This document shows, in pieces, positions 1,435 through 38,950 of a DNA stretch of 41,613 bases (position 1 is its first letter; each line of letters opens with the position of its first letter). Both the position numbers and the translations under genes were made by a program. Where the stretch lies: the NCBI GenBank assembly GCA_038061595.1, contig JBBTYZ010000015.1:1-41613 (forward strand), given 5' to 3'. The notes beneath the pieces were generated by a model. The model worked only from the letters and a program-made list of their open reading frames with translations, was not told the DNA's origin and made no database searches. This stretch comes from Patescibacteria group bacterium (GTDB taxonomy: Bacteria; Patescibacteriota; Minisyncoccia; UBA6257; GWB1-50-10).

Positions 1435-1445
1435 TCGGAAAACGT

Positions 1446-1772: not shown

Positions 1773-1776
1773 CCCC

Positions 1777-2526: not shown

Positions 2527-2537
2527 CTTAGAATGTA

Positions 2538-2546
2538 TGTTAAAAT
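2538..2546 (+). promoter_or_regulatory. Candidate extended -10 element (TGTTAAAAT) for the plus-strand module
   Basis: TGnTAAAAT sits 10 nt upstream of the ATG at 2557 with no Shine-Dalgarno in between, implying a very short or absent leader. The identical 9-mer recurs on the minus strand at 23835-23843, in the 144-nt gap upstream of the SDR gene. Confidence 0.3.
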
Positions 2547-2556
2547 TTTAGATACT

Positions 2557-4029: not shown

Positions 4030-4037
4030 GCTTTTTG

Positions 4038-4058
4038 CCCCCTTCATAAAAAAGGGGG
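4038..4058 (+). promoter_or_regulatory. GC hairpin overlapping the only G-rich (SD-like) tract upstream of the GTG start of the DUF502-like gene
   Basis: CCCCCTT(4038-4044)/AAGGGGG(4052-4058) with a 7-nt loop and no U-tail on either strand, so it is not a canonical terminator. The 3' arm is the GGGGGGG tract 4-10 nt upstream of the GTG at 4064. Confidence 0.3.
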
Positions 4059-4063
4059 GGTCA

Positions 4064-4648: not shown

Positions 4649-4657
4649 AAACATAAC

Positions 4658-4683
4658 AAAACCCGCAAATTTGCGGGTTTTTG
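4658..4683 (+). terminator. Rho-independent terminator
   Basis: AAAACCCGC(4658-4666)/GCGGGTTTT(4673-4681), a GC-rich stem followed by a T5 tract, 10 nt after the stop at 4648. Confidence 0.75.
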
Positions 4684-4705
4684 ATTCAACGGCTACCATA
4701 TACGT

Positions 4706-6028: not shown

Positions 6029-6040
6029 TAAATCAACAAT

Positions 6041-7942: not shown

Positions 7943-7949
7943 TTTTTTC

Positions 7950-9578
7950 ATGCGAATACTTACGGGTAAAAAGTGGCGCGATGGCTTCCTAGATTACCAT
8001 CGGAACAAAAAGGAATACCGCATACAAGTTCTCGCTTGGAAAGACTTGGAAAAGCTTGAGAATGTTTACCACACACGTGCCAAAAGCTTGCGGCTTCTTA
8101 TGAATTACCTGCCGGTTGTTGGTCCCGAGGGACTCATCACAAAAACCTGGTCAAGGATAAGAGAGGAAAGGCGCAATGAAAAATACCTCGGCTGTGGAAT
8201 AGGAATAGTTATGGAAAAGCCCGAAGGCGGCAGCTTTTCTGTGGGAGATGTTGTCGCATTCGTTGCTCCTTGGCACCCACCCCTTTCGGAAAGAATCGTG
8301 TTGCCGGAAATGCTTGTTGCCAAAATAGACAGCACTAGTATGCCCGAGCTCAAAGAGAACACTATTCTTTTCCAACCCTTGAAATCCAAAGAAACTCAAA
8401 ATATTTGGTGGAAAGGCGTTAAAGCATGGAGTGTTTACTCTGGAATAGAGATTTCTGAAGCGACGAGGAAGGGGCTTCAAGATGGGCTAAAGAACGAAAT
8501 AAAAAATACCGATTGGGCGAAGTCGGAACATATTAACGCTAAAAATCCCAGCCCGATTGCAGAAATGAAGATTAAGGAGGGGGCGAGAGAGTCTGATTCC
8601 GGCAAGAAGAGCGGAGTTTTATTCGGCTACGGTAACTACGCCAAGATAAACATAATCCCCTACGCCGGCAAATTTGTTGATATAAAAACGGTTCACGAGA
8701 TAGACCCAACGCAGATATTCATTGAAAAGCGGGTTCAGAAGTGGGATTCTTCCCCATTTCCGAGAAAAGACGAAAAACATGATGTTTATTTCGTCGCAAG
8801 CTACAACCACACGCATGTTCCGATAACCCTTCATGCCCTGAAGCAAGGCGCGTATGTGTTGGTAGAAAAGCCGGTTGTTATGGACTATGAGGAATTGGAC
8901 GAGCTTGAAAAAGCCCTAAAGGTTGCGGGGAGAAAACTTTTTATCGGCTTCCACAAGCGCTATGGCTTGTTCAATGAATTGGCGCTCCAAGATTTGGGTG
9001 TAAAACGCGGCGAGCCGATTTCCTACCACTCAATAGTTTACGAGCTCATTCAGCCCGAATTTTTCTGGTACAACTGGCCTGTTTCCCGAAGCACATTCTT
9101 ATCAAACGGATGCCATCAGGTTGACCACTTCCTGCACTTGAACAACTGGAGCAAGCCCAAAGATGCCGATATAAAACTATTGCAGGATGATGCGGTTGAG
9201 GTTTGGATTGAGCTTGAAAACGGGGCGACATTCACCACAACCTTCAGCGAGAAAGGCGTGTATCGCGTTGGCCCAAGAGATCACGTTGAGCTCAAAGTCC
9301 ACGGCAGGAATGTAAGAATAACGGACGCTATAAAATATCAGTCAGAGGACAATCACAAAATAATCCGCAGGAAGAGAATATTTAAGACGAATAGCTACAG
9401 AGATATGTATGAAACGATTGGTAAGAAGATGGCCAATAACGAACCGGGCGATTCAATAGAATCGGTTTTGATTTCGTCAAAAATAATGCTGGATTTGGAA
9501 GAAAAATTGCAGAAAATGAAAAAATGGGGAAATAGATACGATAAGGCTAAAGATGAGTTTGAGAGGTATTTTTCTTAG
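7950..9578 (+). CDS. Gfo/Idh/MocA-family NAD(P) oxidoreductase with a ~215-aa N-terminal extension (GroES-like segment reminiscent of 'bi-domain' oxidoreductases)
   Basis: The C-terminal half has the Rossmann motif GVLFGYGNYAKINIIP and the family EKP motif (AYVLVEKPVVMDYEELDEL). The N-terminal segment YLGCGIGIVMEKPEGGSFSVGDVVAFV...LVAKI resembles the ADH GroES-like lobe. No ADH Rossmann domain lies between the two. Confidence 0.65.
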   Translation: MRILTGKKWRDGFLDYHRNKKEYRIQVLAWKDLEKLENVYHTRAKSLRLLMNYLPVVGPEGLITKTWSRIREERRNEKYLGCGIGIVMEKPEGGSFSVGDVVAFVAPWHPPLSERIVLPEMLVAKIDSTSMPELKENTILFQPLKSKETQNIWWKGVKAWSVYSGIEISEATRKGLQDGLKNEIKNTDWAKSEHINAKNPSPIAEMKIKEGARESDSGKKSGVLFGYGNYAKINIIPYAGKFVDIKTVHEIDPTQIFIEKRVQKWDSSPFPRKDEKHDVYFVASYNHTHVPITLHALKQGAYVLVEKPVVMDYEELDELEKALKVAGRKLFIGFHKRYGLFNELALQDLGVKRGEPISYHSIVYELIQPEFFWYNWPVSRSTFLSNGCHQVDHFLHLNNWSKPKDADIKLLQDDAVEVWIELENGATFTTTFSEKGVYRVGPRDHVELKVHGRNVRITDAIKYQSEDNHKIIRRKRIFKTNSYRDMYETIGKKMANNEPGDSIESVLISSKIMLDLEEKLQKMKKWGNRYDKAKDEFERYFS

Positions 9579-10134
9579 TTTGTGGACTCTCGGGTTTATT
9601 AAAACTTAAAGCAGTTTTTGTTACCCAAACAGATTCGCCAGTTCTCAATTCTAATTTCGCTTCAACTGATTTTATAAGTTCGTGAGGTAGCTTATCTTTC
9701 GGATCAATCCTTATTTCGCCAGTACCCCCATCTAAAATGAGGTGTGCATGCTCGCCAGATCTTTTTTCAGTGATAAATATATGTTGATCTTCACCATCAA
9801 CAACCGACTGAATATCTACGTTGTCATTCGACAGCATAGCTTTTATTTTTCTTCCTTCTTTATATTCTTCAAGCAAGGCTACCCAGCCATCCAATTGGAT
9901 TGCCTCATCTGCTGATACAAAACCATCTCTCGCTTGCTTTGTCCAGGTAGTTACTTTGCTCAGTTTCTCTGCTTTCCTTTTTAAAAGGTTGTTCGTAAAT
10001 AGGCTGGTTGCTTCTTTTGCGATACGAAAAGCTTCAGATTTATCTTGATGCCTAGCAAGGCCCTGTCCTATCAAATCTTGTATCTTTTTGATTTCTTTAA
10101 TCGCGACATCAATTTTTTCATAATTTGTAACCAT
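9547..10134 (-). CDS. Hypothetical protein, no recognisable family (terminal gene of the minus-strand array)
   Basis: 195 aa with no TM helix or signal peptide. The N-terminal half is helical and charged; the C-terminal half is beta-like (DGEDQHIFITEKRSGEHAHLILDGGTGEIRID). The ATG lies 1 nt after the wecB stop. The 3' end overlaps the convergent gene 7950..9578 by 32 nt. Confidence 0.55.
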   Translation of the reverse strand: MVTNYEKIDVAIKEIKKIQDLIGQGLARHQDKSEAFRIAKEATSLFTNNLLKRKAEKLSKVTTWTKQARDGFVSADEAIQLDGWVALLEEYKEGRKIKAMLSNDNVDIQSVVDGEDQHIFITEKRSGEHAHLILDGGTGEIRIDPKDKLPHELIKSVEAKLELRTGESVWVTKTALSFNKPESPQTKKNTSQTHL

Positions 10135-16009: not shown

Positions 16010-16597
16010 TTAAAATTCCTTCTCGACTTCCTCACAAATGACGTGCAACACCATTGTGTGAACCTCCTGAATCCGCGGAGTGTTTCTGGAAGGCACGACG
16101 ATTGATATGTCTGCGACGCCCCTCAAGGCCCCTCCATCGTTACCAAGCAGGCAGACGGTTTTAATGCTCATTTCTTTCGCCTTCTTTACTGCCTCAATTA
16201 TATTCTTTGAATTACCACTCGTGGAAATGCCGAAGAAAACATCTCCAGAAACCCCCAGCGCTTCTACTTCTCTTGCGAAAAGAGAATTGAAATCATAGTC
16301 GTTACTCCAGGCAGTCAGAGCAGATGTATCGGTTGTGAGCGCTATCGCCGGATGCCCCTTTCTTTCTCGTTTATATTTACAGACAAATTCTGCAGCGAAA
16401 TGCTGGGCATCCGCTGCCGAACCACCATTCCCCGCAACAAGAATCTTGTTCTTGTTTTTGAAACAATCTTTCACCAAAGAAACTGATTCGTGGACACTTT
16501 TTAAAAAATTGGCGTCATGCAAAAGAGCCGTACGCAAGGCCATAGACTCATTTATGTGGTCATTTATATAAGAATAATCACTGCCCATAACCATCAT
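16010..16597 (-). CDS. gmhA: D-sedoheptulose-7-phosphate isomerase (SIS domain)
   Basis: 195 aa with GNGGSAADAQHFAAEF, ISTSGNS and the conserved QE.H segment (RIQEVHTMVLH). Confidence 0.88.
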   Translation of the reverse strand: MMVMGSDYSYINDHINESMALRTALLHDANFLKSVHESVSLVKDCFKNKNKILVAGNGGSAADAQHFAAEFVCKYKRERKGHPAIALTTDTSALTAWSNDYDFNSLFAREVEALGVSGDVFFGISTSGNSKNIIEAVKKAKEMSIKTVCLLGNDGGALRGVADISIVVPSRNTPRIQEVHTMVLHVICEEVEKEF

Positions 16598-21091: not shown

Positions 21092-22027
21092 TTATGGTTT
21101 TTGTTTAAGATCTCGTTCTATGCGGGCCGCAATCTTTTTCGCCGTAAGCCCACACAATCCTATCAAATATTCCCGTGAGCCGGTAACGTGCAAAAACTTA
21201 TCTGCCGTACCCATTCTCACAACCCGATACGACAACCCGCGATCCGCGACTAATTCGGAGATAGCCGATCCTAAACCGCCTATCATGCTATGCTCTTCAA
21301 GAACATAAACGATTTTTTTGTTTTTGAATAAATTTAAAACCTTGCGGACATTAAGCGGTTTTACGGTGGGCAATGATATTAACGCTGCATCTATTTTTTT
21401 ATTTTTAAGCTCGTCTGCCAATTCTCTTGCCAAAAACAACATACTTCCGGTTGAAATAATTGTAGCCATATTGCCGCGTTTTATAAAAATCGGCTCGCCA
21501 ATTCTAAGCTTGGGCTTTTTTAAATGAATAAATTCGTCTGGTCCGCTATTTGTACGCCCAATTCTTATATAAGCTGGGCCTTTAAAAGAACAAGCGAGCT
21601 TGGTAACCTGTTCCGCCTCATAGAGATCCCCCGGACATAACACCGTCATATTTGGCAAGGATCTCATCGCCGCAACATCCTCCAATGCAAAATGGCTTAC
21701 TCCGTACTGGCTTAGCGTAAATCCAGAAGAGGTGCCAACAAGCTTAACGTTCAAATTATTAGACGCGATATCAAGCCTAACCTGCTCAAAGCACCGCAAT
21801 GTTACAAAGGCCGCTTGCGCGTAAAAAAATACTGTGTATCCGTTCATTGCGAGACCCGCCGAAATACCAGCGGCATTCGCTTCCGAAACTCCAGCATTAA
21901 TGAATCTATCCGGGAATTTGTCGCGCAACCCTTCAAAAGTTCCATAGCCCATGTCGGCCGTAACAACGATTATGCTTTTATCTTTCCACATCATCTCCAT
22001 TAAAGTTTTGACAAAAGTCCCTCTCAT
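21092..22027 (-). CDS. Transketolase, C-terminal (pyrimidine-binding + C-terminal domain) subunit of a split transketolase
   Basis: 311 aa with DMGYGT...FINAGVSEANAAGISAGLA..G...F and a later HSMIGGLGSA. It is separated by 1 nt from the N-terminal subunit gene. Confidence 0.85.
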   Translation of the reverse strand: MRGTFVKTLMEMMWKDKSIIVVTADMGYGTFEGLRDKFPDRFINAGVSEANAAGISAGLAMNGYTVFFYAQAAFVTLRCFEQVRLDIASNNLNVKLVGTSSGFTLSQYGVSHFALEDVAAMRSLPNMTVLCPGDLYEAEQVTKLACSFKGPAYIRIGRTNSGPDEFIHLKKPKLRIGEPIFIKRGNMATIISTGSMLFLARELADELKNKKIDAALISLPTVKPLNVRKVLNLFKNKKIVYVLEEHSMIGGLGSAISELVADRGLSYRVVRMGTADKFLHVTGSREYLIGLCGLTAKKIAARIERDLKQKP

Positions 22028-22028
22028 G

Positions 22029-22850
22029 TTATTTAGATAGTTCTTTTAAAGCTGCTTTTAGATCCGACTCGTTTGGGTATTTATAGTGCCATTCAATCCT
22101 GTCTTCCAGAAAAGAAACCCCCTTTCCTTTTATGGTATGGGCAATTATCGCGGTTGGTTTGTTTTTTTTGAGCGGTATTCGCGCAAATGCTTTTTCTAAA
22201 GAAGTGAAATTATTCCCATCCGCCTCAATCGCCTCCCAGCCAAAAGCTAGAAATTTGTCGGGGACCGGGTCTATATTCAAAACCTCTTTTGTTCTGCCAA
22301 AAGATTGCCATTTATTGTAATCCACGATAGCTATCAAATTATCCAAATTATTATGGCCGGCAAACAGTATTGCTTCCCAGGTTGAACCCTCGTCCAATTC
22401 CCCGTCGCTTATAACCACAAAAACACGGTGCTTGCTTTTCATTTTTTTTCCCGCAAGGGCCATACCGGTACCAACCGGAAGTCCGTGTCCCATCGATCCG
22501 GTAGTCGCCTCTATTCCCGGGACTCCGCTCATGGTTGTTATGCCAACGAATTTACTGCCATTCACACAATAGGTATCCAATTTATTTTTGCTGAAAAATC
22601 CCCTGTCGGCTAAAACGGCATAAAGCGCAGAAGCGCCCCACCCCTTACTCAAAATAAATCTGTCTCGCGTTTTGTTTTTAGGATCTTTTGGGTCTATTTT
22701 TAAAATAAAATTATACAAATAAATCAAAATATCCAGCACGGAATAGGCCGAACCCAAGTGCGATGCCCTTGCCTTAAATATCATCTCTATTATCCGCTTC
22801 CTTAGCTCCTTGCCCTTCTTTTTTAAAAGATTGATCTCTTCTTTTTTCAT
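22029..22850 (-). CDS. Transketolase, N-terminal (ThDP/PP-binding) subunit
   Basis: 273 aa with ASHLGSAYSVLDIL, GSMGHGLPVGTGMALAG and VISDGELDEGSTWEA...NNLDNLIAIVDYNK. In the last string the usual GDG of the ThDP motif reads SDG. Confidence 0.85.
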   Translation of the reverse strand: MKKEEINLLKKKGKELRKRIIEMIFKARASHLGSAYSVLDILIYLYNFILKIDPKDPKNKTRDRFILSKGWGASALYAVLADRGFFSKNKLDTYCVNGSKFVGITTMSGVPGIEATTGSMGHGLPVGTGMALAGKKMKSKHRVFVVISDGELDEGSTWEAILFAGHNNLDNLIAIVDYNKWQSFGRTKEVLNIDPVPDKFLAFGWEAIEADGNNFTSLEKAFARIPLKKNKPTAIIAHTIKGKGVSFLEDRIEWHYKYPNESDLKAALKELSK

Positions 22851-23785
22851 TATTTTAGAGACTGTTTCTTCACCCAGTTTATGAATTTTGTAAGTCCGTC
22901 ATCTAGAGAATTTTTTGGGGACCAGTCAAGGATTTTTTTCGCTAGAGATATGTCGGCAACCCACATCTTCGGCTCATGTTGTTTCGCCGCAAGGTTCCCA
23001 TATATAACCCGGATCTTTTTACCCAAAATTTTTTCAACCGCACTTACCGCCCCAGAGATTGAATGTTGCTTTCCGGAAGCGATATTAAAAATCCTTCCCT
23101 TAATATTATCAGCGTTATCGATTGCCCTCAAATAAACGTCTATAACATCTTCAATAAACACAAAATCTCTTACGAATGACGGTGAGGGGGCACTGAATTT
23201 TTCATCTTTAAGCCCGGCCGCAACAATATTCGGCATTAGCCGGCCGCTCCCCTCAAAATATCCGTACGGTGAAAAAAGCCTCATGGTCGCTACGGATAAT
23301 CCCGTTTTTCTGGATAACGATTCACAATACAAGGTACCGGCGGCCTTGCTTACGCCGTAGAGATTGTTCGGTTCCAATAGATCTTTTTCAGATATTGGGT
23401 GATTTTTTTCTCCATATTCGGAGCTGCTACCGGTGTTTATAAAACACTTAAAACCTGTTTCTGCGCACGCATTCAATAGATTTATCGTCCCCAAAGCATT
23501 GGTTAAAATTGTCGTTTTCACATCCATCTCTTTCCCCGAATAAGCGCCATAAGCAGCGAAATGCAAGATAATTTCCGGCCTTAAGCCGTTTACAAACTTG
23601 CTCGTCGCCTGCTCGTCTATAAGATCGACCGGATGCAAATGAACTCTATTTTTTATCGGTTCAATACGTTTAAAATTGGAATCCCCTCGGACTAGCAAAT
23701 GAATTTCGTGCCCTAATTCCAAAAATTTATACACAAAATTAGCCCCTACAAAACCCGTACCTCCGGTTATTAGTATTTTTTTCAT
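22850..23785 (-). CDS. Extended SDR, NAD-dependent epimerase/dehydratase/reductase
   Basis: 311 aa with ILITGGTGFVGANF, GSSSEYG and YGVSK (YxxxK). Its stop overlaps the tkt-N start by 1 nt. Confidence 0.8.
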   Translation of the reverse strand: MKKILITGGTGFVGANFVYKFLELGHEIHLLVRGDSNFKRIEPIKNRVHLHPVDLIDEQATSKFVNGLRPEIILHFAAYGAYSGKEMDVKTTILTNALGTINLLNACAETGFKCFINTGSSSEYGEKNHPISEKDLLEPNNLYGVSKAAGTLYCESLSRKTGLSVATMRLFSPYGYFEGSGRLMPNIVAAGLKDEKFSAPSPSFVRDFVFIEDVIDVYLRAIDNADNIKGRIFNIASGKQHSISGAVSAVEKILGKKIRVIYGNLAAKQHEPKMWVADISLAKKILDWSPKNSLDDGLTKFINWVKKQSLK

Positions 23786-23929
23786 TGCTTTTTGCTCATT
23801 TTATAGCCTATTTTGCAATCATTCCTACCCAACGATTTTAACACAAAAAACACTAAATTCTAGGGTCCCACCCGAATAATCACTATGACGACCCCCGCCC
23901 AAAACATACGATGCTTGGAGCAAAAGTTC

Positions 23930-25174
23930 TTATTTAATCTTAAATTTCTTCAGAAAAGTTCCAATCACCTCACAAACGTAATCAACCATTTCTACCGTTA
24001 TCCCGTGATGCAATCCGATTAAAAAAGATCGCTCCATTATTATCTGAGAATTCTTCAGGTCGCCAATTTTTCTATACTTGGTGTTCTTGTAGGCTGGTTG
24101 TTTTAAGATGTTGCCGGAGAAAAGTGGTCGGGTCTGAATTTTATGATCTTCCAGATATTTAACCAATTGATTGCGAGTAAAAGGCGCTCCGTCGTTTATG
24201 GTTAGCGGCAAGGCAAGCCAATTTACCGAAGCGTTTGGTAACTCTTCCGGTAATGTGAAATAGCGTTCGAATTTCTTTAAAAAATTGCAGAATCTTTTAT
24301 GGTTATGCCTGCGAGCCGAGGTAAATCCACCCAACCTATTCAACTGTTCCAAACCAAAAGCGGCCTGCATCTCAGTGGGTTTAAAGTTATAACCCCTCTC
24401 CACAAACACAAAAGCGCTATCGTAGGGCCGGCCATCTATTTTAAAAGTAGCGAGCCGGGAGCGTATGTTCTCGTCATGCCTTGAAATACCCCTACCCCAG
24501 TCACGAAACACACGTGCGCGTTCCCTTAGTTTTTTATCATTAGTCATAAGCATGCCGCCTGCACCACCAGTGGTTATAAGGTGTGAAGAATAAAAGCTTG
24601 TCGTAGTTAAATCACTCCACTTACCAGATGGCTTTCCATGAAATTTTCCCCCAATAGTGTCACAACTATCTTCAATGAAGATCAATTTGTGTTTTTTGCA
24701 AAAATTTTTTATTACCGGCAGGTTTACAAAATTACCAATAAGATGTGGGGCCATAATCGCAACGGTCTTCTTTGAAAGAGCCTTCTTTAGATTTTTGGTA
24801 TCTATTTGGTATGTTTCTGGTTCTACATCAACGAAAACAGGGACCAAGCCCGTTTGAATTATGGGCGCAACGGTTGTGTTGAATGTACAAGCAGGCGTAA
24901 TTATTTCCGACCCTTTCGGAAATTTAAAAGCCTCTAACGCCAAAAGATTCGCAGAGGAACCAGAGTTAACAAACAGTCCGTATTTCTTGCCAAAAATACT
25001 GGCTATCTTATTCTCAAATTCCTTAGTTATTCCCCCAGTCGTTAGCCAGCCGCTCTCTAAGGCAGTGGTCACAGCCATTATCTCCTTTCTTCCGAAAGCA
25101 TCTTTCATGTTGGGCGCATACCAAACCCAATCCTTTCCACGAATAAATTTTTTATTTTTTATGAGCTGATTCAT
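23930..25174 (-). CDS. DegT/DnrJ/EryC1-fold PLP/PMP enzyme of the E1 (RfbH/DdhC)/ColD 3-dehydrase type (active-site Lys replaced by His)
   Basis: Family strings are LFVNSGSSANLLA, TFNTTVAPIIQTGLVPVFVDV and IEDSCDTIGG. The Schiff-base position reads SFYSSHLITTGG, with His encoded by codon 24583-24581 (CAC). The start was moved to the ATG at 25174, which forms a TGATG overlap with the upstream stop, giving 414 aa. Confidence 0.75.
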   Translation of the reverse strand: MNQLIKNKKFIRGKDWVWYAPNMKDAFGRKEIMAVTTALESGWLTTGGITKEFENKIASIFGKKYGLFVNSGSSANLLALEAFKFPKGSEIITPACTFNTTVAPIIQTGLVPVFVDVEPETYQIDTKNLKKALSKKTVAIMAPHLIGNFVNLPVIKNFCKKHKLIFIEDSCDTIGGKFHGKPSGKWSDLTTTSFYSSHLITTGGAGGMLMTNDKKLRERARVFRDWGRGISRHDENIRSRLATFKIDGRPYDSAFVFVERGYNFKPTEMQAAFGLEQLNRLGGFTSARRHNHKRFCNFLKKFERYFTLPEELPNASVNWLALPLTINDGAPFTRNQLVKYLEDHKIQTRPLFSGNILKQPAYKNTKYRKIGDLKNSQIIMERSFLIGLHHGITVEMVDYVCEVIGTFLKKFKIK

Positions 25175-26229
25175 CAATGCATTTCCATCTTGCCTTCCCC
25201 TGTTTCGATTGGAACATACCTCATCCAAAGTTTTTCCTCCCACCATTTATTATTTTCGGTATACCATTTAATGGTCTTCTCTAAGCCGTCAACAAACGAA
25301 ATCTGCGGCTGCCAACCCAATACAGTTTTAATTTTAGTGGCATCCGCCATGTGTCTAAAAACCTGACCAGGCCTATCACCGATATTCATCACGGAATCAC
25401 TAAAGTTAAAATCTTGTAACCGGGACATCTTGTCTACGATTTTGACCGCGATTTCATTAACCGAGAAATTTTTACCGGACCCCACATTGAACACCTGCCC
25501 CTTAACCTTGTCGATTGGAGCGTGCAGAACTAAGTCGATAGCTCTCACAAGGTCTTCAACATAAGTAAAGTCTCGGCTACTGTTACCGCTTCCATGAATC
25601 GTGAGAGGTTCTTTCAAAAGACAAGCGGTGATAAATCTTGGTATAAGTTTTTCTAAATGCTGATGCGGACCAAATATATTAAAAGGTCTTATTATGACCG
25701 CTGGAATATCAAATGTGGCAACATAGGAATAAACCAGACGATCAGCGCCAGCCTTTGCCGCTGCGTAAGGGCTCATCGGGTTTAGGGGGTGATTCTCGTT
25801 CATAAAATCTGCAGCAGAGGTTCCATACACCTCGCTTGTTGAAATATGAATAAACCTATCAATGTTCTTTTTATGTTTTAAAACCGCATTCGCCACTCGT
25901 TGAGTGCCAATAACATCTGTCTCAAAAAACCTTTCATCGTCGTAAATTGAACGAGCTACGTGAGTTTCGGCAGCAAAATGAATAACAATATTCGCCCGCG
26001 AGACAAGCTCTTCAACCAGCTTGGCGTTTTTTACATCTCCATACACAAAACGAAAATTTGGAGCTTCGTGAATCTTTTTTGAAATATTATGAATATCTCC
26101 AGCATACGTAAGTGCGTCAAGAACAATAAAGTTGTATTTGGGGTACTTGTCGAACAGATAAGCAAGCATATTGCTACCAATAAATCCGGCGGCCCCAGTT
26201 ATTAAAATTGTCTTTTCGTGAGCTAACAT
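25174..26229 (-). CDS. NDP-hexose 4,6-dehydratase (RmlB/RfbB-like extended SDR)
   Basis: 351 aa with ILITGAAGFIGSN...YPKYNFIVLDALTYAGDIHNI, HFAAETHVARSI, ISTSEVYG and YAAAKAGADRLV. The layout is strongly RmlB-like, but TDE reads TSE. Confidence 0.8.
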   Translation of the reverse strand: MLAHEKTILITGAAGFIGSNMLAYLFDKYPKYNFIVLDALTYAGDIHNISKKIHEAPNFRFVYGDVKNAKLVEELVSRANIVIHFAAETHVARSIYDDERFFETDVIGTQRVANAVLKHKKNIDRFIHISTSEVYGTSAADFMNENHPLNPMSPYAAAKAGADRLVYSYVATFDIPAVIIRPFNIFGPHQHLEKLIPRFITACLLKEPLTIHGSGNSSRDFTYVEDLVRAIDLVLHAPIDKVKGQVFNVGSGKNFSVNEIAVKIVDKMSRLQDFNFSDSVMNIGDRPGQVFRHMADATKIKTVLGWQPQISFVDGLEKTIKWYTENNKWWEEKLWMRYVPIETGEGKMEMH

Positions 26230-26332: not shown

Positions 26333-27397
26333 TTACTTTATGCCGAACTCATTCATTAATATTTCCAATAATTTCTTAACAATGCTATCCAATAATTCTC
26401 CGCCATTTAAAATTCTTTCCCGTCCGGCCTTGGCAATACGCTCCCGCAATTCTGGATGTTTTAGATAATAATCAATCTTCTCTTTCATTTCTTCGTACGA
26501 ATCAAAGAAATCGGTTTCTTTGCCAGCTAAAAGCATTTTCTCTGCCTCTTCGGTTCTCTCGTGAAGCATAAAACCTCCGCACAATGGAATCTCCCAACTC
26601 CGGCACGCAACGTATTCTTGATTATGTTTGCGCATAAAAGCCAGAGCGATCTTGCTCGCACCCAAGACTCTCGCCATATCTTCGCAATACACGCCCCCAG
26701 GTACAATACGATTTTTTCGACGCAGACAAGAATTCCAAGGAAGCCTTCCCCACGAATTGCCGTAGATCTTAATGTCATATCCATCCCGACACAGTTTTTC
26801 TAAATATTCGGATCGATTTTCCTTGGCGTAAGTGCCAATAAAAACAACGTCCGCACCAAGTTTTTTTCGGTCTCCTTCAGTGATTAAGACCGGGTGATGA
26901 CAACTCGCGTCAGCAGAAACCGTTAGATAAATTGCCCGCTTAGCGCCCCACCTTAGGAGTGGTTCAACATTTGCGGATATAGCCGCCAGATGGCAATCAT
27001 ACAAAGGAATAGATTTATAAAAATAAGTACTCCCCGACTTCGTAAAATCAACATGGTCCGGATACCAGGAGATTAACTTAGCGAATTTTTTAAGCTCCAC
27101 AACAGTGCTGGGATATATTAAAATGGGTTTCATAAAAAGAATGAAACCAAACTTACCAACGCGCGCTTTTTCAACAATAATATTATTCAATTTTTTGATA
27201 CCGGAGCCGAAATAGATGGGGGTTGGCAACAACCCGCTAGCAATAAAAAACCTGCTCATTACTCGATTAAAAAGAGATGGCGTGAAATATTGATTGGTAT
27301 TTACGAGCTGTACATCTACGCCAAGCTTCAACAAATTATCGTAAATCAAACCCATTGATCCGCCCGGGCCAAGCTCACCGACTAATAATATTTTCAT
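26333..27397 (-). CDS. CgeB-family / DUF3880-type glycosyltransferase-like protein
   Basis: The C-terminal region SWEIPLCGGFMLHERTEE...FDSYEEMKEKIDYYLKHPELRERIAKAGRERI matches the Glyco_trans_1_2/CgeB pattern. The start was moved to the ATG at 27397 (MKILLVGELG), 10 nt after the upstream stop, giving 354 aa. Confidence 0.6.
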   Translation of the reverse strand: MKILLVGELGPGGSMGLIYDNLLKLGVDVQLVNTNQYFTPSLFNRVMSRFFIASGLLPTPIYFGSGIKKLNNIIVEKARVGKFGFILFMKPILIYPSTVVELKKFAKLISWYPDHVDFTKSGSTYFYKSIPLYDCHLAAISANVEPLLRWGAKRAIYLTVSADASCHHPVLITEGDRKKLGADVVFIGTYAKENRSEYLEKLCRDGYDIKIYGNSWGRLPWNSCLRRKNRIVPGGVYCEDMARVLGASKIALAFMRKHNQEYVACRSWEIPLCGGFMLHERTEEAEKMLLAGKETDFFDSYEEMKEKIDYYLKHPELRERIAKAGRERILNGGELLDSIVKKLLEILMNEFGIK

Positions 27398-29685: not shown

Positions 29686-30438
29686 TTAGACTAACGGCAA
29701 ATTGCTCACTCCCTCCAAGTTCTTATCAAAATCATTCCGTGCTTTCTCATAACTTTCGGGTGTTCCAATATCGATGAAGTAATTCTTAAACACAAAACCA
29801 TAAACTTTCGCATCTCTAATGTGTTTTTCGAAAAAATCTTTCTCTATCGAAAATGTTTCAGGCAAATCAAAATTGTTCAAAACGCCCTTTCCGAATATAT
29901 ACATCCCGCCGCTAATTAGTCCTGGGCCGCCCCTTCCTGTTTTCTCTTTAAAATTCATTATCCTATTATTCTCATCTACGGTCACAGTTCCAAAATTTCG
30001 AGTATCATCCATTTGGCTTAGACAGATAGAGACGTGAGCACCGTGCTTAATGTGTTGTTTTAAGAAGTGATCGTAATTGATAGGGAAGAACGTGTCGCCG
30101 TTCAAGACGAGCACCATCTCATGCGAGGAATTATTAATAGCCTTCTTAATTGCTCCTCCTGTACCCAAAGGACTTTCTTCTTCTGAAAAACTTATCGTTG
30201 TACCTTTCGGAAACGATCGTCCTTTCATATGTTCGCGCATTTTGTCTTTCATATGGCCAACAGAAAGCATTATGTCCCGAAAGCCACATTGCAAAAGATT
30301 ATCAATCGTGTAATCCAATAGAGTTTTATTTTTTATCGGGGCTAAGACCTTGGGCCTATCAGCAATAACCGTCTGCAAACGAGTTCCAAGGCCGCCGGCA
30401 AGGATAATAACGCGTATATTTTTAAGTTCGGTGTTCAT
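29686..30438 (-). CDS. hddC: Sugar-1-phosphate nucleotidyltransferase, best fit D-glycero-alpha-D-manno-heptose-1-phosphate guanylyltransferase
   Basis: 250 aa with VIILAGGLGTRL...DRPK.LAPI, PLGTGGAI and NGDT. Its short single-domain size and its position next to the HddA-like kinase fit HddC/WcbM. Confidence 0.7.
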   Translation of the reverse strand: MNTELKNIRVIILAGGLGTRLQTVIADRPKVLAPIKNKTLLDYTIDNLLQCGFRDIMLSVGHMKDKMREHMKGRSFPKGTTISFSEEESPLGTGGAIKKAINNSSHEMVLVLNGDTFFPINYDHFLKQHIKHGAHVSICLSQMDDTRNFGTVTVDENNRIMNFKEKTGRGGPGLISGGMYIFGKGVLNNFDLPETFSIEKDFFEKHIRDAKVYGFVFKNYFIDIGTPESYEKARNDFDKNLEGVSNLPLV

Positions 30439-30449
30439 TGATTGAAAAA

Positions 30450-31439
30450 CTATTTTGTTTGATAAATTATATGGCTACCCTCATCTTCAAAAGCAAATGG
30501 GACGTGGAGCAATTTAGAAAGCGCCGTTTTAACTCTTTCCTGGTCTTTCGGCCGAGCATATACCAACAGGAATCCGCCCCCACCGGCGCCCAAGAGCTTG
30601 CCACCCAAGGCTCCCGCCTCCCTGGCCCGTGCATAAAAGCCGTCAATAGTATCGTTTGATATTTTTGGTGAAAGACTCCTTTTTAACTCCCAGCTTTTAT
30701 GGAGAAGTCTACCAAAATCCCCCAGCCAATCGCCATTGCTCTTAAGCACAAGAACAGCCTCATCTACCATGTTATGCATTGCCTGTAATTCAATTTTTTT
30801 ATTAGGGATGTTTTTAATCTGTTCGGTTGCAATCTCCGAAGCATTCCTAGAAAAACCAGTGAAGAAAAGCATCATATGTTTTTGTAACTCCTCAAGCCTC
30901 CCATCGCTTAACTTTATTGGCGTGACAGCGAAGCTACCATCTTTATGGAAGTTAATCTTATTAAATCCGCCATATGCAACAGCAACTTGATCTTGCGACC
31001 CAACGTTTTCTTTGATGCAATTCTGCTCAATATGAATCGCTTCCTCTGCTAATTTCTTTCTATCAGGACTGATTCCTTTGAGTCCATAAAGTGCGTGCAA
31101 AAAACCAACAGTAAAAGACGAGCTTGAACCCATACCCGATCTAGCCGGCACATCTCCGTTATAGTGGATAGACAACCCATCATTAAAATCCATAAAACGG
31201 AGGGTCTCCCGAACTGACGGATGCGCGATTTCATCAATACTATTAACCTCCTCCATTCGAGACCAAGCCACCCTGGTTTTATAAGGAAAATATGGGGGAA
31301 GACGTATCGCGTGCAAATACGAATATTTGTTAATTGAGGTGCTAAGTACTGCCCCGCCATATTCTTTGACCCACCCCGGATAATCTGTCCCACCCCCAAA
31401 AAACGATATGCGCAGTGGTGTTTTTGTAATAACCATCAT
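30450..31439 (-). CDS. hddA: GHMP sugar kinase, best fit D-glycero-alpha-D-manno-heptose-7-phosphate kinase
   Basis: 329 aa with TKTPLRISFFGGGTDYP, GMGSSSSF (GHMP motif II) and LLGAGGGGFLL (motif III). This is the HddA/WcbL-like layout. Confidence 0.72.
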   Translation of the reverse strand: MMVITKTPLRISFFGGGTDYPGWVKEYGGAVLSTSINKYSYLHAIRLPPYFPYKTRVAWSRMEEVNSIDEIAHPSVRETLRFMDFNDGLSIHYNGDVPARSGMGSSSSFTVGFLHALYGLKGISPDRKKLAEEAIHIEQNCIKENVGSQDQVAVAYGGFNKINFHKDGSFAVTPIKLSDGRLEELQKHMMLFFTGFSRNASEIATEQIKNIPNKKIELQAMHNMVDEAVLVLKSNGDWLGDFGRLLHKSWELKRSLSPKISNDTIDGFYARAREAGALGGKLLGAGGGGFLLVYARPKDQERVKTALSKLLHVPFAFEDEGSHIIYQTK

Positions 31440-35100: not shown

Positions 35101-35619
35101 TCAAATTAAATCCAGGACTTCTTCTGGACTCTGAACAATATGATCAGGCGAACAATTTGCGAGATATTTAGCCTTAAACTCATTTTTCACAAAAATCGTC
35201 TTGCATCCCACCGCCTGGCCAGCTAAAACATCCTTATCACCATCGCCAACCAATATTGACTGTGTGCAATCAATATTTAAATCTTGCGCCGCTTGTCGGA
35301 ACATCCCGGCCTTAGGTTTCCGGCAATCACAATTGTCTGCATCTACATGCGGGCAATGATACACGGCGTCTAACTCATGATCCAAAAGACGTTCCATCTC
35401 ATTATGGAGTTTATGCAATTCGACTTCAGAAAGTAACCCTTTCGAAATTTGGGGTTGATTCGTTACCACAACCACCTTGTAGCCGTGTTCTTTTGCGGCA
35501 TGGATTACACTTTTTATTCCCGGCATAAGCTCGAACCCGTCCTTGAGGAGACGATAACGCCCGAGTTCCGCACATATAACACCGTCGCGATCAAGGAAAA
35601 GCGCCTTACGCTTTTCCAT
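35101..35619 (-). CDS. gmhB: D,D-heptose 1,7-bisphosphate phosphatase (HAD-IIIA)
   Basis: It has ALFLDRDGVI (DxD nucleophile motif), VVVTNQPQISKG, the Zn-knuckle CPHVDADNCDCRKP and GDGDKD. The start was moved from the track's TTG at 35652 to the ATG at 35619, which overlaps the upstream gene by 14 nt. Confidence 0.82.
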   Translation of the reverse strand: MEKRKALFLDRDGVICAELGRYRLLKDGFELMPGIKSVIHAAKEHGYKVVVVTNQPQISKGLLSEVELHKLHNEMERLLDHELDAVYHCPHVDADNCDCRKPKAGMFRQAAQDLNIDCTQSILVGDGDKDVLAGQAVGCKTIFVKNEFKAKYLANCSPDHIVQSPEEVLDLI

Positions 35620-36652
35620 ATATTTTGTTGATATCCCTAAGATGAGCAGCAAAATATTCTTTGTGTCTCTTGATTATTACGTTCTCCGATTCCATCAACT
35701 TTTCCAAAAACTTCACTGGATCTTTTTCGGTTATAGCATTGATTTCCGCCCACACCTCATGTCCGTGCATATATCCTTCGATCTCTGTCAAAAAATCATT
35801 TTTATAGACATTACGAGCGCCCCACACCCCACGATCTTGTCGATTCACTGCATCACCAACATGGACATACATATCGTTGTTAAAAAGCACTTTCTGAAAT
35901 ACGAAAGAATGGAAAATATCATCCATCCGTTCCGCAAAAGGCCACATGAGCGCGAGTGGAAAGATAAATTTTGCATACACCGTATTCTGAGTGTTATACG
36001 GCGACCAAACATTTTTTAGGCAATAATTTTTTTCTCTGATTGACTCAAGGGGTAGACGCTTGGGGTAAACCAGACGGGTTCTAGCATCAATATCTGGGTC
36101 ACCTAGGGAAATTCCTTGAAAAAGACCAATCTCTTGAGGTTGAATAGCATCTTTTATTGCCCTAACCTCTGTAGCATCTTGCCACAAAAATGGCATGGGA
36201 AAACCACGTGGATACATTTCTATAGGGGCCGGAGCGGTCTTCAGATAGTTATGCCAGGGAGCAGGCACAACCTCTTTTGTAACTTCGACTACTTGATTTA
36301 CTGGTCTCGTAAGAACATTGTGCCAACTTTCAAAATAATCGGGGTCGGGAATGTTGTCATCATCAATAGTAAGAATAAAATCCGGATTAAGCTCTAAGGC
36401 ACGCAGAAATGCGGCGTTTCTTCGTCTCTGACTTTTCCAACCAATAAGACTGCTTATCTCAAAACGCTCTTGGTTTTTGGGTGATAAATACTCAATCTTA
36501 CATTTGAATTTCTTGTCATCAAATGGCTTTGAGGTTGTGTCTCCGGCAATAACAAATACAACCTCTGAAAATTTACTTTTTGCCGCCAATGAATCGTAAG
36601 GCAGGTATCCCTCCTCTCCGTTTATGGTTGTAGAAACAATTACTAATTTCAT
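35606..36652 (-). CDS. RGP/GT75-like protein (reversibly glycosylated polypeptide / UDP-arabinopyranose mutase-like fold)
   Basis: 348 aa, and by-eye alignment to plant RGP/UAM runs along the whole length. LVIVSTTIN matches IVIPTIRN and FILTIDDDN matches YIFTIDDDC (DxD). YPRGFPMPF matches VRGYPFS and includes the Arg corresponding to the reversibly glycosylated Arg. GISLGDPDIDARTRL matches GLWLNIPDYDAPTQL, and ERMDDIFHSF matches GRYDDMWAGW. Confidence 0.5.
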   Translation of the reverse strand: MKLVIVSTTINGEEGYLPYDSLAAKSKFSEVVFVIAGDTTSKPFDDKKFKCKIEYLSPKNQERFEISSLIGWKSQRRRNAAFLRALELNPDFILTIDDDNIPDPDYFESWHNVLTRPVNQVVEVTKEVVPAPWHNYLKTAPAPIEMYPRGFPMPFLWQDATEVRAIKDAIQPQEIGLFQGISLGDPDIDARTRLVYPKRLPLESIREKNYCLKNVWSPYNTQNTVYAKFIFPLALMWPFAERMDDIFHSFVFQKVLFNNDMYVHVGDAVNRQDRGVWGARNVYKNDFLTEIEGYMHGHEVWAEINAITEKDPVKFLEKLMESENVIIKRHKEYFAAHLRDINKIYGKA

Positions 36653-36671: not shown

Positions 36672-37628
36672 TTATATTCTTCCTTTTTCCTTCATGTCCG
36701 ATTCAATCCAATTATACAGTTCTTTTATTCCTTCTTGAAGAGAAACGCTTGGCTTCCAATTAGAATTGAACTCTTTCTCAACAACGTTCTCCGGGCCAAG
36801 TTTTCGTTCAATGCCCCTTGGCGCATCAAGTTTGTGCTTCCTATTAAACTTTATTCCGGCAGCAGCTTCAACCGCATCAACCAACTGATTTATAGTTACA
36901 AATTCCCCACTCCCGAGACGCACCGGTTCTGTAATCTCGCTTTCTGTTAATTTGCGTATTCCATCCACCGCGTCTCTCACAAACATAAAGCTTCTAACCT
37001 GCGTACCGTCTCCCCAAATTTCGAGATCAAGATTCCCGGAAGATTTAGCGATAACCGCCTTGCGACAGAGTGCGGCAGGAGCCCTCTCTCTACCACCCTC
37101 GTAGGCATCGTGTGGCCCATATATATTCTGGAGACGGCCAATCCTAGTAGGCAATCCGAAATCTTCACGAAAATATTTACAAAGTTTTTCGCTGAAAAGT
37201 TTTTCCCAAACATGGCCGTCCTCAATAACGTCTGTTAGGGCCTTGCCCTCTTGGGGGACTTCGGCCACAGAAACTGCATTTGAAGAAGAATAGAAATACC
37301 GTCCCACTTTTGCCGCTCGCGCAGCCATAAGAAGGTGGGTATTAATTAGAACAGAAAGCATGGTTAGGGCTTTCTGTTTCTCAATAAAGTTAACCCCGCC
37401 GATTTCAGCGGCCAAATTATATACCCCATCAACGCCCTCCATCGCCTTTTCACAACTCTCTTTAAGAGTGAGGTTTAAGGAGATGTTTTCCGCTTCCTTG
37501 TGGAGTTGTTTCCATTCGGAAAGTCCCCGCTTCCCAACAGCACGCACTCGAAAACCATCACTTAAAAGACTTCCTACTAAATGGCCACCAATAAGCCCGC
37601 TTCCGCCCGCAACTAATATTCTTTTCAT
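36672..37628 (-). CDS. GDP-mannose 3,5-epimerase (GME)-family extended SDR with non-canonical active site
   Basis: 318 aa with ILVAGGSGLIGGHL. The long strings IGRLQNIYGP, EGGRERAPAALCRKA and WGDGTQVRSF mirror plant/bacterial GME (IGRFHNIYGP, KGGREKAPAAFCRKA, WGDGLQTRSF). The YxxxK motif reads HVWEK (His139). Confidence 0.7.
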   Translation of the reverse strand: MKRILVAGGSGLIGGHLVGSLLSDGFRVRAVGKRGLSEWKQLHKEAENISLNLTLKESCEKAMEGVDGVYNLAAEIGGVNFIEKQKALTMLSVLINTHLLMAARAAKVGRYFYSSSNAVSVAEVPQEGKALTDVIEDGHVWEKLFSEKLCKYFREDFGLPTRIGRLQNIYGPHDAYEGGRERAPAALCRKAVIAKSSGNLDLEIWGDGTQVRSFMFVRDAVDGIRKLTESEITEPVRLGSGEFVTINQLVDAVEAAAGIKFNRKHKLDAPRGIERKLGPENVVEKEFNSNWKPSVSLQEGIKELYNWIESDMKEKGRI

Positions 37629-37657
37629 AATTTGTGATTTATTTATTGTTCAACGCA

Positions 37658-38935
37658 CTAAGTTTCGTAAATCTTAAATTCCGGCATGGGTACGATAAAT
37701 TTTCCGCCATTTTTAAAAAATTCTTTTTCACGTTCTCTGAATTCTGGAAGAAAATGCCAGGCTAAAACAAAGTAATAATCGGGTTTTTGACTCCGCGATT
37801 GTATCTCTGACACGACGGGAATTTTGGTACTCACTGTTATCTTGCCCCACTTCAATGAGTTTCTATCGGCAATCGCTTCGATCAATTCTGGTTTTAATCC
37901 GTAAAACTGCAGAGTCGTATTCCCTTTAGTAGACGCCGCATAGCCGTGAACCTTCTTACCACTAGCTATCTCTTGCTTTATGAAAGACACAACCCTCTCC
38001 TTTGTTTCAATGGTTCTTTTGGCAAATCTCTCATAAATATCTTTGTCGTCTAAACCGAGTGATTTTTCTTTTTCGCGTACCGCTAAAACTCTTTGCTTCG
38101 CACCATCATAAACACTCAAGTTCTTGCCCAATCCTTTTTTTCTGACATATATCCGAACACTGCCTTCATTAATGTGCTCCCTCATTTCTAAATCGAAAAC
38201 CTCAAGTCCGTGACGGGCGAGCAAGTTCTCAAGAGCCATCAATGAGTAGTATTCAAGGTGCTCATGACAAATGCCATCAACCGCGTTCTGCCCGAGGAAA
38301 GACGGCAGATACATCATTTGGATAACAAGAATCCCGTCATCATCTAAACACTTCACGATATCACTAACGAAAATATTAGGGTTATCCAGGTCATAAAACA
38401 TCGCAATCGCAGTAATGCTCTTGGCCTTGGCATTGCCAAACTCTTTCTCCCAAGAGTTGTGGTTAAAAAAATCAACTATTATTTTAGTAGTCCCCTTTTT
38501 GCCTTCTTCTTCTAGGTTTTTCGCTGGCTCAAAACCAACTGTTTTCAACCCAGGAATTTTATAACCACGTAGAAGCGTGCCATCATTTGCACCTATATCT
38601 ATAACCAAATCGCCACTTTTCAAACCGACAATTTCGGAAACCTTGTTTGCTATCCCATTTAACTCATCCGTCATCGTCTGGTTAATCCCTGACTTATACC
38701 AATAATTTCTATACATAACCTCTCCAGAAACGGTATGTCTGAGCTGAAGCAAACCGCAACCGCCATCTTTTTGATTGCACAAAACCAATTCTAAGGGCGC
38801 CTCAGTGCCCTGATATTCTTGCCCCGGATCCAAAAAATCCGAAACATATAGATTACCGAGTGAAAAAATCTGAGTCAGATTTTTAAAACCACAAGAGCGG
38901 CATGACTCAATAACACGAATCATTGGATTTGACAT
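37658..38935 (-). CDS. NDP-4-keto-sugar C-methyltransferase (TylCIII/EryBIII-type; Zn-finger + SAM MT + C-terminal MT_14 domain)
   Basis: 425 aa with an N-terminal 4-Cys module CRSCG...L.LVLCNQKDGGCGLLQL, SAM motif I VIDIGANDGTLL, and the C-terminal domain typical of sugar C3/C5 C-methyltransferases (HGYAASTKGNT...KWGK..P). Confidence 0.82.
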   Translation of the reverse strand: MSNPMIRVIESCRSCGFKNLTQIFSLGNLYVSDFLDPGQEYQGTEAPLELVLCNQKDGGCGLLQLRHTVSGEVMYRNYWYKSGINQTMTDELNGIANKVSEIVGLKSGDLVIDIGANDGTLLRGYKIPGLKTVGFEPAKNLEEEGKKGTTKIIVDFFNHNSWEKEFGNAKAKSITAIAMFYDLDNPNIFVSDIVKCLDDDGILVIQMMYLPSFLGQNAVDGICHEHLEYYSLMALENLLARHGLEVFDLEMREHINEGSVRIYVRKKGLGKNLSVYDGAKQRVLAVREKEKSLGLDDKDIYERFAKRTIETKERVVSFIKQEIASGKKVHGYAASTKGNTTLQFYGLKPELIEAIADRNSLKWGKITVSTKIPVVSEIQSRSQKPDYYFVLAWHFLPEFREREKEFFKNGGKFIVPMPEFKIYET

Positions 38936-38950
38936 AGCTTTAACAAATTA

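Follow-up and report, generated by a model that had tools for sequence, protein, structure and literature searches.

In Yersinia pseudotuberculosis, yersiniose A is formed from CDP-glucose by the successive action of DdhB, the E1/E3 pair, YerE and YerF, with the thiamine diphosphate (ThDP) enzyme YerE attaching pyruvate-derived activated acetaldehyde to CDP-3,6-dideoxy-4-keto-D-glucose (PMC12247030). Enzymes of the alphaKADH2 class related to the E1 component of pyruvate dehydrogenase (PDH-E1-like; for example KbDH-alpha/beta and those of the aldgamycin, avilamycin and paulomycin pathways) move a pyruvate-derived two-carbon unit to a deoxy-keto sugar (PMC12247030; PMC4753412). Split transketolases, encoded by two genes, have been proposed for the hydroxyacetyl branching of keto sugars in miharamycin, amipurimycin and 13 further candidates from Streptomyces, and a 2025 review states that no transketolase has been shown in vitro to branch keto sugars and that the candidates all come from Streptomycetes (PMC12247030). 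The present analysis concerns contig JBBTYZ010000015.1 of the Patescibacteria group bacterium assembly GCA_038061595.1 (41,613 nucleotides, forward strand; this whole stretch is called the window), in which five minus-strand genes at 21,092–26,229 encode a 4,6-dehydratase-like short-chain dehydrogenase/reductase (SDR), a His-type sugar 3-dehydrase, a second SDR and the two subunits of a transketolase-like enzyme. We put at about one half the probability that these five genes, probably together with a glycosyltransferase-like gene upstream, constitute a dedicated pathway to a C-branched dideoxysugar within a surface-glycan cluster, a reading drawn from gene families, active-site residues and gene order.

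The module shares its gene logic with the YerE/YerF system, in function the nearest one known: both in the window and in its relatives the gene for the ThDP enzyme keeps company with those for a 4,6-dehydratase, a 3-dehydrase and a reductase, and distant loci carrying a pair of the same kind (W-type, after an active-site Trp described below) even have feeders resembling glucose-1-phosphate cytidylyltransferase and CDP-glucose 4,6-dehydratase. The scaffold is different. YerE, of the decarboxylase (acetolactate-synthase-like) superfamily, consists of one chain, whereas the window enzyme has a two-subunit transketolase fold; it does not contain TPP_enzyme_N/M/C in one chain (PF02775 scores 20 bits, below its cutoff), and profile scans of the open reading frames (ORFs) of the window found no YerE-type (TPP_enzyme_N/M/C) gene elsewhere in it. 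Because YerE belongs to a different ThDP superfamily, the window enzyme would be YerE-like in role and not a member of the YerE family. The YerE pathway moreover includes E1/E3, whereas the window dehydrase has neither an Fe-S cluster nor an E3 partner, and YerE hosts are Gram-negative bacteria with lipopolysaccharide, whereas W-type hosts are Patescibacteria.

The PDH-E1-like alpha/beta enzymes are also two-subunit ThDP enzymes, with an optional ketoreduction after C2 transfer, but they belong to the E1_dh alpha/beta subfamily and to actinomycete secondary metabolism, and the N subunit of the window pair reaches 20.7 bits with PF00676, under the cutoff of 22. The miharamycin and amipurimycin clusters, compared here by description, likewise combine split transketolase genes with keto-sugar-forming enzymes in a sugar-tailoring cluster, with a ketone acceptor and a neighbouring oxidoreductase. 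They are, however, actinomycete secondary-metabolite clusters, while the window holds a cell-surface glycan cluster of a bacterium of the Candidate Phyla Radiation (CPR), and the hydroxyacetyl fragment proposed for them needs the histidines that contact the donor C1-OH, which are Trp and Ile in the window enzyme. Given these proposals for miharamycin and amipurimycin, the sole transketolase precedent that we found, a transketolase scaffold for keto-sugar branching would not be wholly new; in our literature search, which covered O-antigen, capsule, CDP-glucose and CPR contexts, no earlier account turned up of a transketolase-like enzyme within a deoxysugar module for surface polysaccharides.

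ORFs and family profiles place the five genes on the strand and in the order given by the sequence-only reading that preceded this work. The first is the 4,6-dehydratase-like gene (25174..26229, 351 aa), an extended SDR with TIGR01181 as best family. It is followed by the DegT-family sugar 3-dehydrase, dependent on pyridoxamine or pyridoxal phosphate (PMP/PLP; 23930..25174, 414 aa; PF01041, 3.3e-90), an intergenic gap of 144 nt read directly from the sequence (23786..23929), the second extended SDR, probably an NADP(H)-dependent ketoreductase (22850..23785, 311 aa; PF01370, 1.5e-49), tktN for the N-terminal, PP-domain subunit (22029..22850, 273 aa; PF00456 Transketolase_N, 6.8e-41) and tktC for the C-terminal subunit with the Pyr and C domains (21092..22027, 311 aa; PF02779 Transket_pyr, 4e-29, and PF02780 Transketolase_C, 4.5e-22). 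The junctions are likewise as first described: the dehydrase starts on the stop codon of the dehydratase in a TGATG overlap (GCATTGATGAAT), the SDR and tktN overlap by 1 nt in TAATG (AAATAATGAAA), and a 1-nt gap separates tktN from tktC (TAACATG). A promoter and terminator scan of the module, including the 144-nt gap, gave no signal above shuffled background. The gap holds a G-rich stretch, GGGCGGGGGTCGTC...GGGTGGGACCC, exactly at the site where relatives carry inserted genes, and may be the remnant of an insertion or a deletion.

Transketolases share a five-histidine cluster and a conserved substrate set (yeast His30, His263, Arg359, Ser386, His469, Asp477 and Arg528), whose roles in substrate and phosphate recognition have been described, and yeast His103 is cited as needed for both substrate recognition and catalysis (PMC3352088). 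For the comparison with these enzymes we aligned the window pair with HMMER against the split transketolase 6yak/6yaj and human transketolase and tabulated signatures from MAFFT alignments; the two approaches gave concordant results. Kept in the N subunit are His31 (human His37), Asp149 and Asn179 (Asp155 and Asn185) and His255 (His258), and in the C subunit Arg2 (Arg318), Glu49 for ThDP activation (Glu366), His112 (Gln428; yeast His481) and Arg158 (Arg474). Replaced are human His77 by Trp71 and His110 by Ile104 in the N subunit, and Ser345 by Gly29, His416 by Ser100 and Asp424 by Tyr108 in the C subunit, so that the canonical signature H-H-H-GDG-N-H / R-S-E-H-D-H/Q-R reads H-W-I-SDG-N-H / R-G-E-S-Y-H-R. 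In terms of the yeast enzyme, three histidines of the cluster (His30, 69, 103, 263 and 481) are retained, with Trp71 standing for His69 and Ile104 for His103; of the substrate set Arg359, Ser386, His469, Asp477 and Arg528, the two arginines persist, while Ser has become Gly, His has become Ser and Asp has become Tyr. The ThDP motif and the activating Glu are both present. The motif does read SDG, as the sequence-only reading had it (S148-D149-G150, with N179 further on), a variant found in 108 of the 120 best homologues.

The best solved match of both subunits is the Carboxydothermus-type structure pair 6yak/6yaj, the split transketolase of C. hydrogenoformans (E 5.5e-67 for N and 1.1e-48 for C), with which the window enzyme has in common the fold, the two-gene split, the ThDP motif, the Glu, the Asn and the three histidines. 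Canonical transketolases nonetheless carry H-H-H/GDG and S-H-D where the window enzyme has W-I/SDG and G-S-Y, and they fall in other gene contexts and separate clades. On the NF004559 equivalog the two subunits together score 419 bits (257.2 for N plus 161.7 for C), under the cutoff of 488.

The replacements are not peculiar to the window. Trp occupies the same site in 117 of the 120 best homologues (56–100% identity), and the second site (human His110) holds Ile, Gly, Ser, Thr, Cys or Ala in the W-type homologues. Across the clade the sites of yeast Ser386, His469 and Asp477 carry S/G/N, S/A/N and Y/L, respectively, and no C subunit from the W-type loci examined departs from S/A/N at the human His416 site or from Y/L at the Asp424 site. 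As the replacements are conserved across the clade, they read as a signature and not as decay. In a neighbour-joining tree all 121 W-type sequences form a single clade, which leaves out the relatives of the H-H type, a Bacillota split transketolase, 6yak and human transketolase. The nearest homologues of tktN belong to metagenome-assembled genomes (MAGs) of Patescibacteria/CPR (Saccharibacteria, Minisyncoccia, Levybacteria and Roizmanbacteria), with a single Woesearchaeota archaeon among them. Together with the synteny of locus L012 described below they make a CPR origin of the window probable, and they speak against a Leptospira rfb origin, at which GC content and the long same-strand array had hinted. 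A search of 1.84 billion cluster representatives returned 1764 proteins at E <= 1e-30, and as W-type proteins account for very few of these 50%-identity clusters (2 of the best 150) the clade appears compact; tblastn against PLSDB plasmids gave no match above 47% identity and no evident W-type gene. With its substrate residues replaced and its position in a separate clade, the pair is not, as judged from these comparisons, a housekeeping enzyme. Clustering with housekeeping pentose-phosphate enzymes, which would have told against the sequence-only reading, was not observed: the clade is monophyletic and its pocket remodelled.

The dehydrase that precedes the gap is of the His type, as had been claimed: a His replaces the Schiff-base Lys (SFYSSHLITTGGAGGM), with SFYSSH at the PLP-lysine position aligning with SFYPAH of the E1 structure 3bcx. 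Its nearest solved relative is E1 itself (3bcx, 1.4e-83, 284 bits), ahead of ColD (3.5e-55, 190 bits), and its best NCBIfam family is RfbH (NF011936), at 404.3 bits against a cutoff of 423. With E1 (DdhC/RfbH) and ColD it has in common the DegT fold and the His in place of the catalytic Lys. E1, however, has four Fe-S cysteines, arranged as C-X57-C-X1-C-X7-C for its [2Fe-2S] cluster, and the window enzyme lacks this motif: only the first Cys aligns, the positions of Cys251, Cys253 and Cys261 being occupied by I, a gap and I, and a distinctive GGxGGM motif of its own follows the His. A true E1 dehydrase in need of E3, which we considered, is ruled out for the window by the missing cysteines, although that assignment holds for three relatives (L019, L021 and L024). 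The enzyme has the His but not the Fe-S motif, which would fit a ColD-type enzyme, yet is nearer to E1 in sequence, and is best described as E1-like in sequence with a predicted ColD-like cofactor make-up. Of the original designation as an E1/ColD-type 3-dehydrase, the His type stands, whereas a true E1 does not, three of the four Fe-S cysteines being absent. Because the dehydrase has no Fe-S cluster, an E3-type reductant is not expected, and no E3-type [2Fe-2S] flavodoxin-reductase gene was found among the scanned window ORFs of at least 120 aa.

The first enzyme also departs from its nominal model. Its best solved relatives are the dTDP-glucose 4,6-dehydratases 2hun (1.9e-69) and 6bi4, and it has the NAD-type Asp after beta-2 (VLDAL) and YAAAK. 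Where 2hun and 6bi4 read STDEVYG it reads STSEVYG, so that Ser replaces the catalytic Asp, and its TIGR01181 (dTDP-glucose 4,6-dehydratase) score of 319.7 bits lies below the cutoff of 365.1. These motifs are kept in orthologues of 67–68% identity, STSEVYG being present in all the close ones (L004, L005, L008 and L012), and STSEVYG is common to Gmd and to UXS/ArnA-type decarboxylases. YAAAK notwithstanding, the Thr-Asp-Glu set that marks RmlB is incomplete and the score falls short; the enzyme is a member of a wider 4,6-dehydratase-like SDR group. In this respect the earlier label of RmlB-like 4,6-dehydratase needs correction.

The second SDR carries TGGTGFVGA, an Arg after beta-2 (LLVRGDS), SSSEYG and YGVSK, and the solved structures related to it are remote (E 4.7e-29 at best). 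In SDRs an Arg that immediately follows beta-2 goes with NADP(H) used as a co-substrate and not with tightly bound NAD+, and the window enzyme is probably an NADP(H)-dependent ketoreductase. Its orthologues, which keep TGxxGxxG, VR after beta-2, SSSEYG and YGxxK, immediately precede tktN at almost all W-type loci. Fusions of SDR and TktN occur among related proteins of the H-H type in several clusters at 50% identity (P0129, P0130, P0211, P0228 and P0230), and their existence suggests that SDR and TktN work as a functional pair.

Upstream of the module lies a gene of the Glyco_trans_1_2 type (26333..27355, minus strand; PF13524, E 2.4e-27). The public gene call gives it 340 aa at 26333-27355, while a GTG start, taken by the ORF lister, would stretch it to 27529. 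Orthologues of 42–53% identity stand directly upstream of the 4,6-dehydratase in L004, L005, L008, L012 and the P0027 locus (these are labels of homologous loci, nearly all from Patescibacteria MAGs), and the gene is a candidate for the transferase of the modified sugar.

We surveyed the neighbourhoods of some 15 distinct W-type loci, and in these ~15 independent loci the pair sits behind an NADP-type SDR. The close clade (at least 64% identity; L004, L005, L008/L011, L012 and the P0027 locus) always has the order glycosyltransferase (Glyco_trans_1_2), 4,6-dehydratase, His-type dehydrase, none to two inserted genes, SDR, tktN and tktC. The inserted genes, in L004, L005, L008 and the P0027 locus, encode a NUDIX protein, an extra SDR and unknown ORFs of 185–240 aa; L012, in a MAG labelled Saccharibacteria, shows extended synteny with the window. 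Since this gene order recurs in unrelated metagenome contigs, a chance arrangement can be excluded. In the distant members (L009/L014, L013/L026, L020, L021, L024 and L025) the gene directly upstream of SDR, tktN and tktC has CDP-glucose 4,6-dehydratase as best family (195–212 bits, with SSDKAY). A gene with glucose-1-phosphate cytidylyltransferase as best family (249–266 bits) is found upstream in L009/L014, L013/L026 and L020; in L024 and L025 it appears as a nucleoside triphosphate (NTP)-transferase gene, and L021 showed no cytidylyltransferase-like gene. By their best families, these upstream genes are predicted feeders of the DdhA/DdhB type for a CDP-3,6-dideoxyhexose pathway. By raw count a His-type dehydrase stands near the pair in 12 of the ~15 informative loci. 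Three lineages are represented among these enzymes: the GGxGGM type of the window, which has no Fe-S cysteines; true E1, in L019, L021 and L024, with the full set of four; and a ColD-like group.

From these elements a pathway can be proposed. The RmlB-like SDR would oxidise and dehydrate an NDP-hexose (NDP, nucleoside diphosphate) to the NDP-4-keto-6-deoxyhexose, as its family suggests, and the His-type DegT enzyme would then take off the 3-OH to give the NDP-3,6-dideoxy-4-ketohexose, probably by a ColD-like PMP/glutamate route that does without an E3 reductase, as the His and the missing cysteines indicate. The heteromeric transketolase-like enzyme would form a ThDP-bound C2 carbanion and add it to the C4 ketone, leaving a tertiary alcohol with a two-carbon side chain, whose carbonyl would be reduced by the translationally coupled NADP-type SDR as YerF does. 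The end product would be a yersiniose-like 4-C-(1-hydroxyethyl) or 4-C-(1,2-dihydroxyethyl) 3,6-dideoxyhexose, transferred to the glycan. The pocket is compatible with such an acceptor in two respects: the kept Arg/Lys pair, which binds phosphate in transketolase, could hold the sugar-1-diphosphate, C4 being as far from the phosphoester carbon (three carbons) as C2 is from C5 in xylulose-5-phosphate; and the Asp that reads the hydroxyl beside the acceptor carbonyl has become Tyr or Leu, which would suit a 3-deoxy CH2. The weakest step is the donor, for which our guess is a pyruvate-type (hydroxyethyl) unit over a ketose phosphate; both histidines for the donor C1-OH being Trp and Ile, the classical donors xylulose-5-phosphate and hydroxypyruvate are doubtful.

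What the sequence-only reading had proposed, a split transketolase and SDR in the place of YerE and YerF, is thus partly supported by the pocket, the clade and the occurrence in glycan clusters near His-type 3-dehydrases, while its classical donors have become doubtful and an E3 partner is not expected. For the clade as a whole we advance, more tentatively than for the window, the idea that a compact and hitherto undescribed group confined almost wholly to Patescibacteria/DPANN MAGs may have turned the pocket of a pentose-phosphate transketolase into that of a carboligase for NDP-3,6-dideoxy-4-ketosugars, by the changes His to Trp, His to Ile, His to Ser/Ala/Asn and Asp to Tyr/Leu.

Several observations weigh against the dideoxysugar pathway as set out above. 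The donor prediction depends on two substitutions only. With Ser in place of the catalytic Asp of RmlB, the first enzyme might give the window clade an acceptor other than a 6-deoxyhexose, for example a pentose. The 144-nt gap and the genes inserted there in relatives mean that the dehydrase half and the SDR-tkt half are not strictly one translational unit. In L009/L014 the sole His-type dehydrase lies ~7 kb away on the opposite strand, beside a transposase. Finally, L016, L017 and L018, whose contexts hold NeuB/HisFH-like or phosphonate genes, have no His-type dehydrase within the DNA of these loci, so that the acceptor may not always be a 3-deoxy sugar.

The gap with its inserted genes and the three loci that lack a dehydrase also speak for the alternative that survives best, namely that the SDR and the pair do modify a sugar, but not the product of the 3-dehydrase: they might extend the chain of an aldehyde, act on another keto sugar in a miharamycin-like way or build a non-sugar C2/C3 substituent, the proximity of the dehydrase merely reflecting shared glycan clusters. 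SDR, tktN and tktC form the invariant core from which the dehydrase stands apart, the two tandem pairs of L009/L014 suggest more than one C-C step, and relatives of the H-H type are fused to methyltransferase or glycosyltransferase domains. Against it, dehydrases of three lineages recur beside the pair in 12 of the ~15 loci by raw count; the hydrophobic residue at the Asp477 equivalent would fit an acceptor with no hydroxyl by the carbonyl; and no other enzyme that generates an aldehyde or a ketone is consistently present. We consider this alternative unlikely, if a serious competitor.

Improbable, in our view, is a pair that is no carboligase at all, whether a ThDP lyase or decarboxylase acting on a sugar or keto acid or a degenerate paralogue with a structural or regulatory role. 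The pair has lost Asp477 and two histidines of the five-member cluster, and in mutagenesis of the yeast enzyme such losses lower activity. But at least 120 homologues invariably keep the ThDP motif, the Mg-ligand Asn, the activating Glu and the counterparts of His30, His263 and His481, which speaks for selection on ThDP catalysis, and the replacements are themselves conserved, Trp above all (117 of 120), unlike decay. The remaining alternative, which the sequence-only reading had kept beside its own, is that the pair is a pentose-phosphate enzyme supplying sedoheptulose-7-phosphate to the GmhA/HddA-like/GmhB/HddC-like heptose pathway; although genes for GmhA, an HddA-like kinase, a GmhB-like phosphatase and an HddC-like transferase do lie in the window, L019 also has a W-type pair beside heptose genes, and the pair retains ThDP binding, Glu49 and three cluster histidines out of five, this is very unlikely, because five residues for donor C1-OH, phosphate and stereochemical recognition are replaced throughout a clade that stands apart from canonical split transketolases, and because heptose genes accompany the pair in 2 of the ~15 loci, the window and L019, being absent within 10 kb either side in ~13 of 15, while in L019 the adjoining E1 dehydrase and Gmd-like dehydratase fit, and suggest, a dideoxyheptose acceptor over precursor supply.

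The relatives show further variation around the pair. In L009:8224-11748 (= L014), from a Levybacteria MAG, two split transketolase-like pairs stand in tandem, the first with the donor histidines kept (H-H-H-SDG-N-Q / R-S-E-G-Y-H-R) and the second W-type (H-W-C / K-S-E-N-L-H-K), which suggests two C-C steps or two donors in one pathway. L008:14724-16532 (= L011), from Minisyncoccia, has a fused transketolase-like gene of 602 aa 3 kb downstream of the W-type pair, in the same glycan cluster; this fused gene too is non-canonical (H-Q-H-GDG-N-H / R-P-E-G-S-H-R) and has a B12-binding radical SAM gene nearby. In L016:8264-12775, from Woesearchaeota, the W-type pair clusters with a phosphoenolpyruvate (PEP) mutase::cytidylyltransferase fusion, a phosphonopyruvate-decarboxylase-like ThDP enzyme and an Fe-type alcohol dehydrogenase. 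The E1-type dehydrase of L024 (12708-15404, plus strand; SFYPAHQMS, with CxCx7C downstream), two genes downstream of the W-type pair, is split just past its catalytic His by an intein with a LAGLIDADG endonuclease domain. TktN is also found fused to N-terminal domains resembling SDR311, FkbM or other methyltransferases, C-methyltransferases or GT2 enzymes, always in the H-H type (representatives P0129, P0130, P0211, P0228, P0230, P0121, P0123, P0139, P0166 and P0241); these proteins may be Rosetta-stone fusions or gene-calling artefacts.

Family profile scans show the module to be embedded in a single minus-strand array of glycan genes at 9547-41594, and plus-strand glycan genes carry the cluster on to ~2488. 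Glycosyltransferases of the GT1/GT2 kinds are numerous in the array, which further holds four FkbM-type methyltransferases besides others of different type, two Wzx-like flippases, an initiating transferase (Bac_transf), a gene of the UDP-glucose/GDP-mannose dehydrogenase family and an RmlC-like epimerase. Scattered over the minus strand at 16010-16597, 29686-31439, 35101-35652 and 40065-41048 are its heptose genes, namely GmhA (220 bits on TIGR00441, cutoff 209), a GHMP kinase resembling HddA, a nucleotidyltransferase resembling HddC and a GmhB-like phosphatase, along with a second Gmd-like dehydratase, which at 349 bits does not reach its cutoff of 415 and could be a GDP-heptose 4,6-dehydratase of the DmhA type. 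At 36672-40009 (minus strand) stands a genuine Gmd (541.6 bits on TIGR01472), and after it come a TylC3-like sugar C-methyltransferase (PF08484/PF08421) and an SDR with weak similarity to GDP-fucose synthase; together these look like a pathway to a GDP-6-deoxy-3-C-methylhexose, virenose- or evalose-like, which would be the second branched sugar of the cluster. Three ORFs had no Pfam match, at 35606-36652 (minus strand, 348 aa), 9547-10134 (minus strand, 195 aa) and 4064-4648 (plus strand, 194 aa), and the 348-aa ORF had no NCBIfam match either. The divergent block at 2488-9578 (plus strand) holds the second Wzx-like flippase, Bac_transf, an AsnB-like amidotransferase and a 542-aa protein with a GFO/IDH/MocA domain, and with these glycan genes the glycan region spans nearly the whole window; at the left edge, 47-2526 (minus strand), lie thioredoxin-reductase-like and DsbA-like genes.

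If the proposed pathway is correct, the W-type pair would represent a third, independent ThDP scaffold for yersiniose-type C-branching, beside the YerE-like and PDH-E1-like enzymes. The Trp/Ile switch would then signal that pyruvate has taken over from ketose phosphates as the donor, and paralogues of the H-H type (the first pair of L009, and L023) would keep glycolaldehyde transfer. ThDP enzymes that accept ketones and yield chiral tertiary alcohols are sought as biocatalysts, and to that search the W-type clade would bring over 100 natural variants that bear a clear active-site signature and have an obvious physiological acceptor. W-type genes are currently annotated as plain "transketolase", a label that inflates pentose-phosphate-pathway calls in metabolic reconstructions of CPR bacteria. 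For the organism, the pathway would mean that a genome-reduced CPR bacterium devotes a cluster of more than 30 kb to a branched dideoxysugar, a C-methylated sugar and heptose-derived sugars, and it would give the first enzymatic evidence of tertiary-alcohol branched sugars on the surface of ultra-small CPR bacteria, exotic surface sugars that would bear on the interaction of these epibionts with their hosts and phages.

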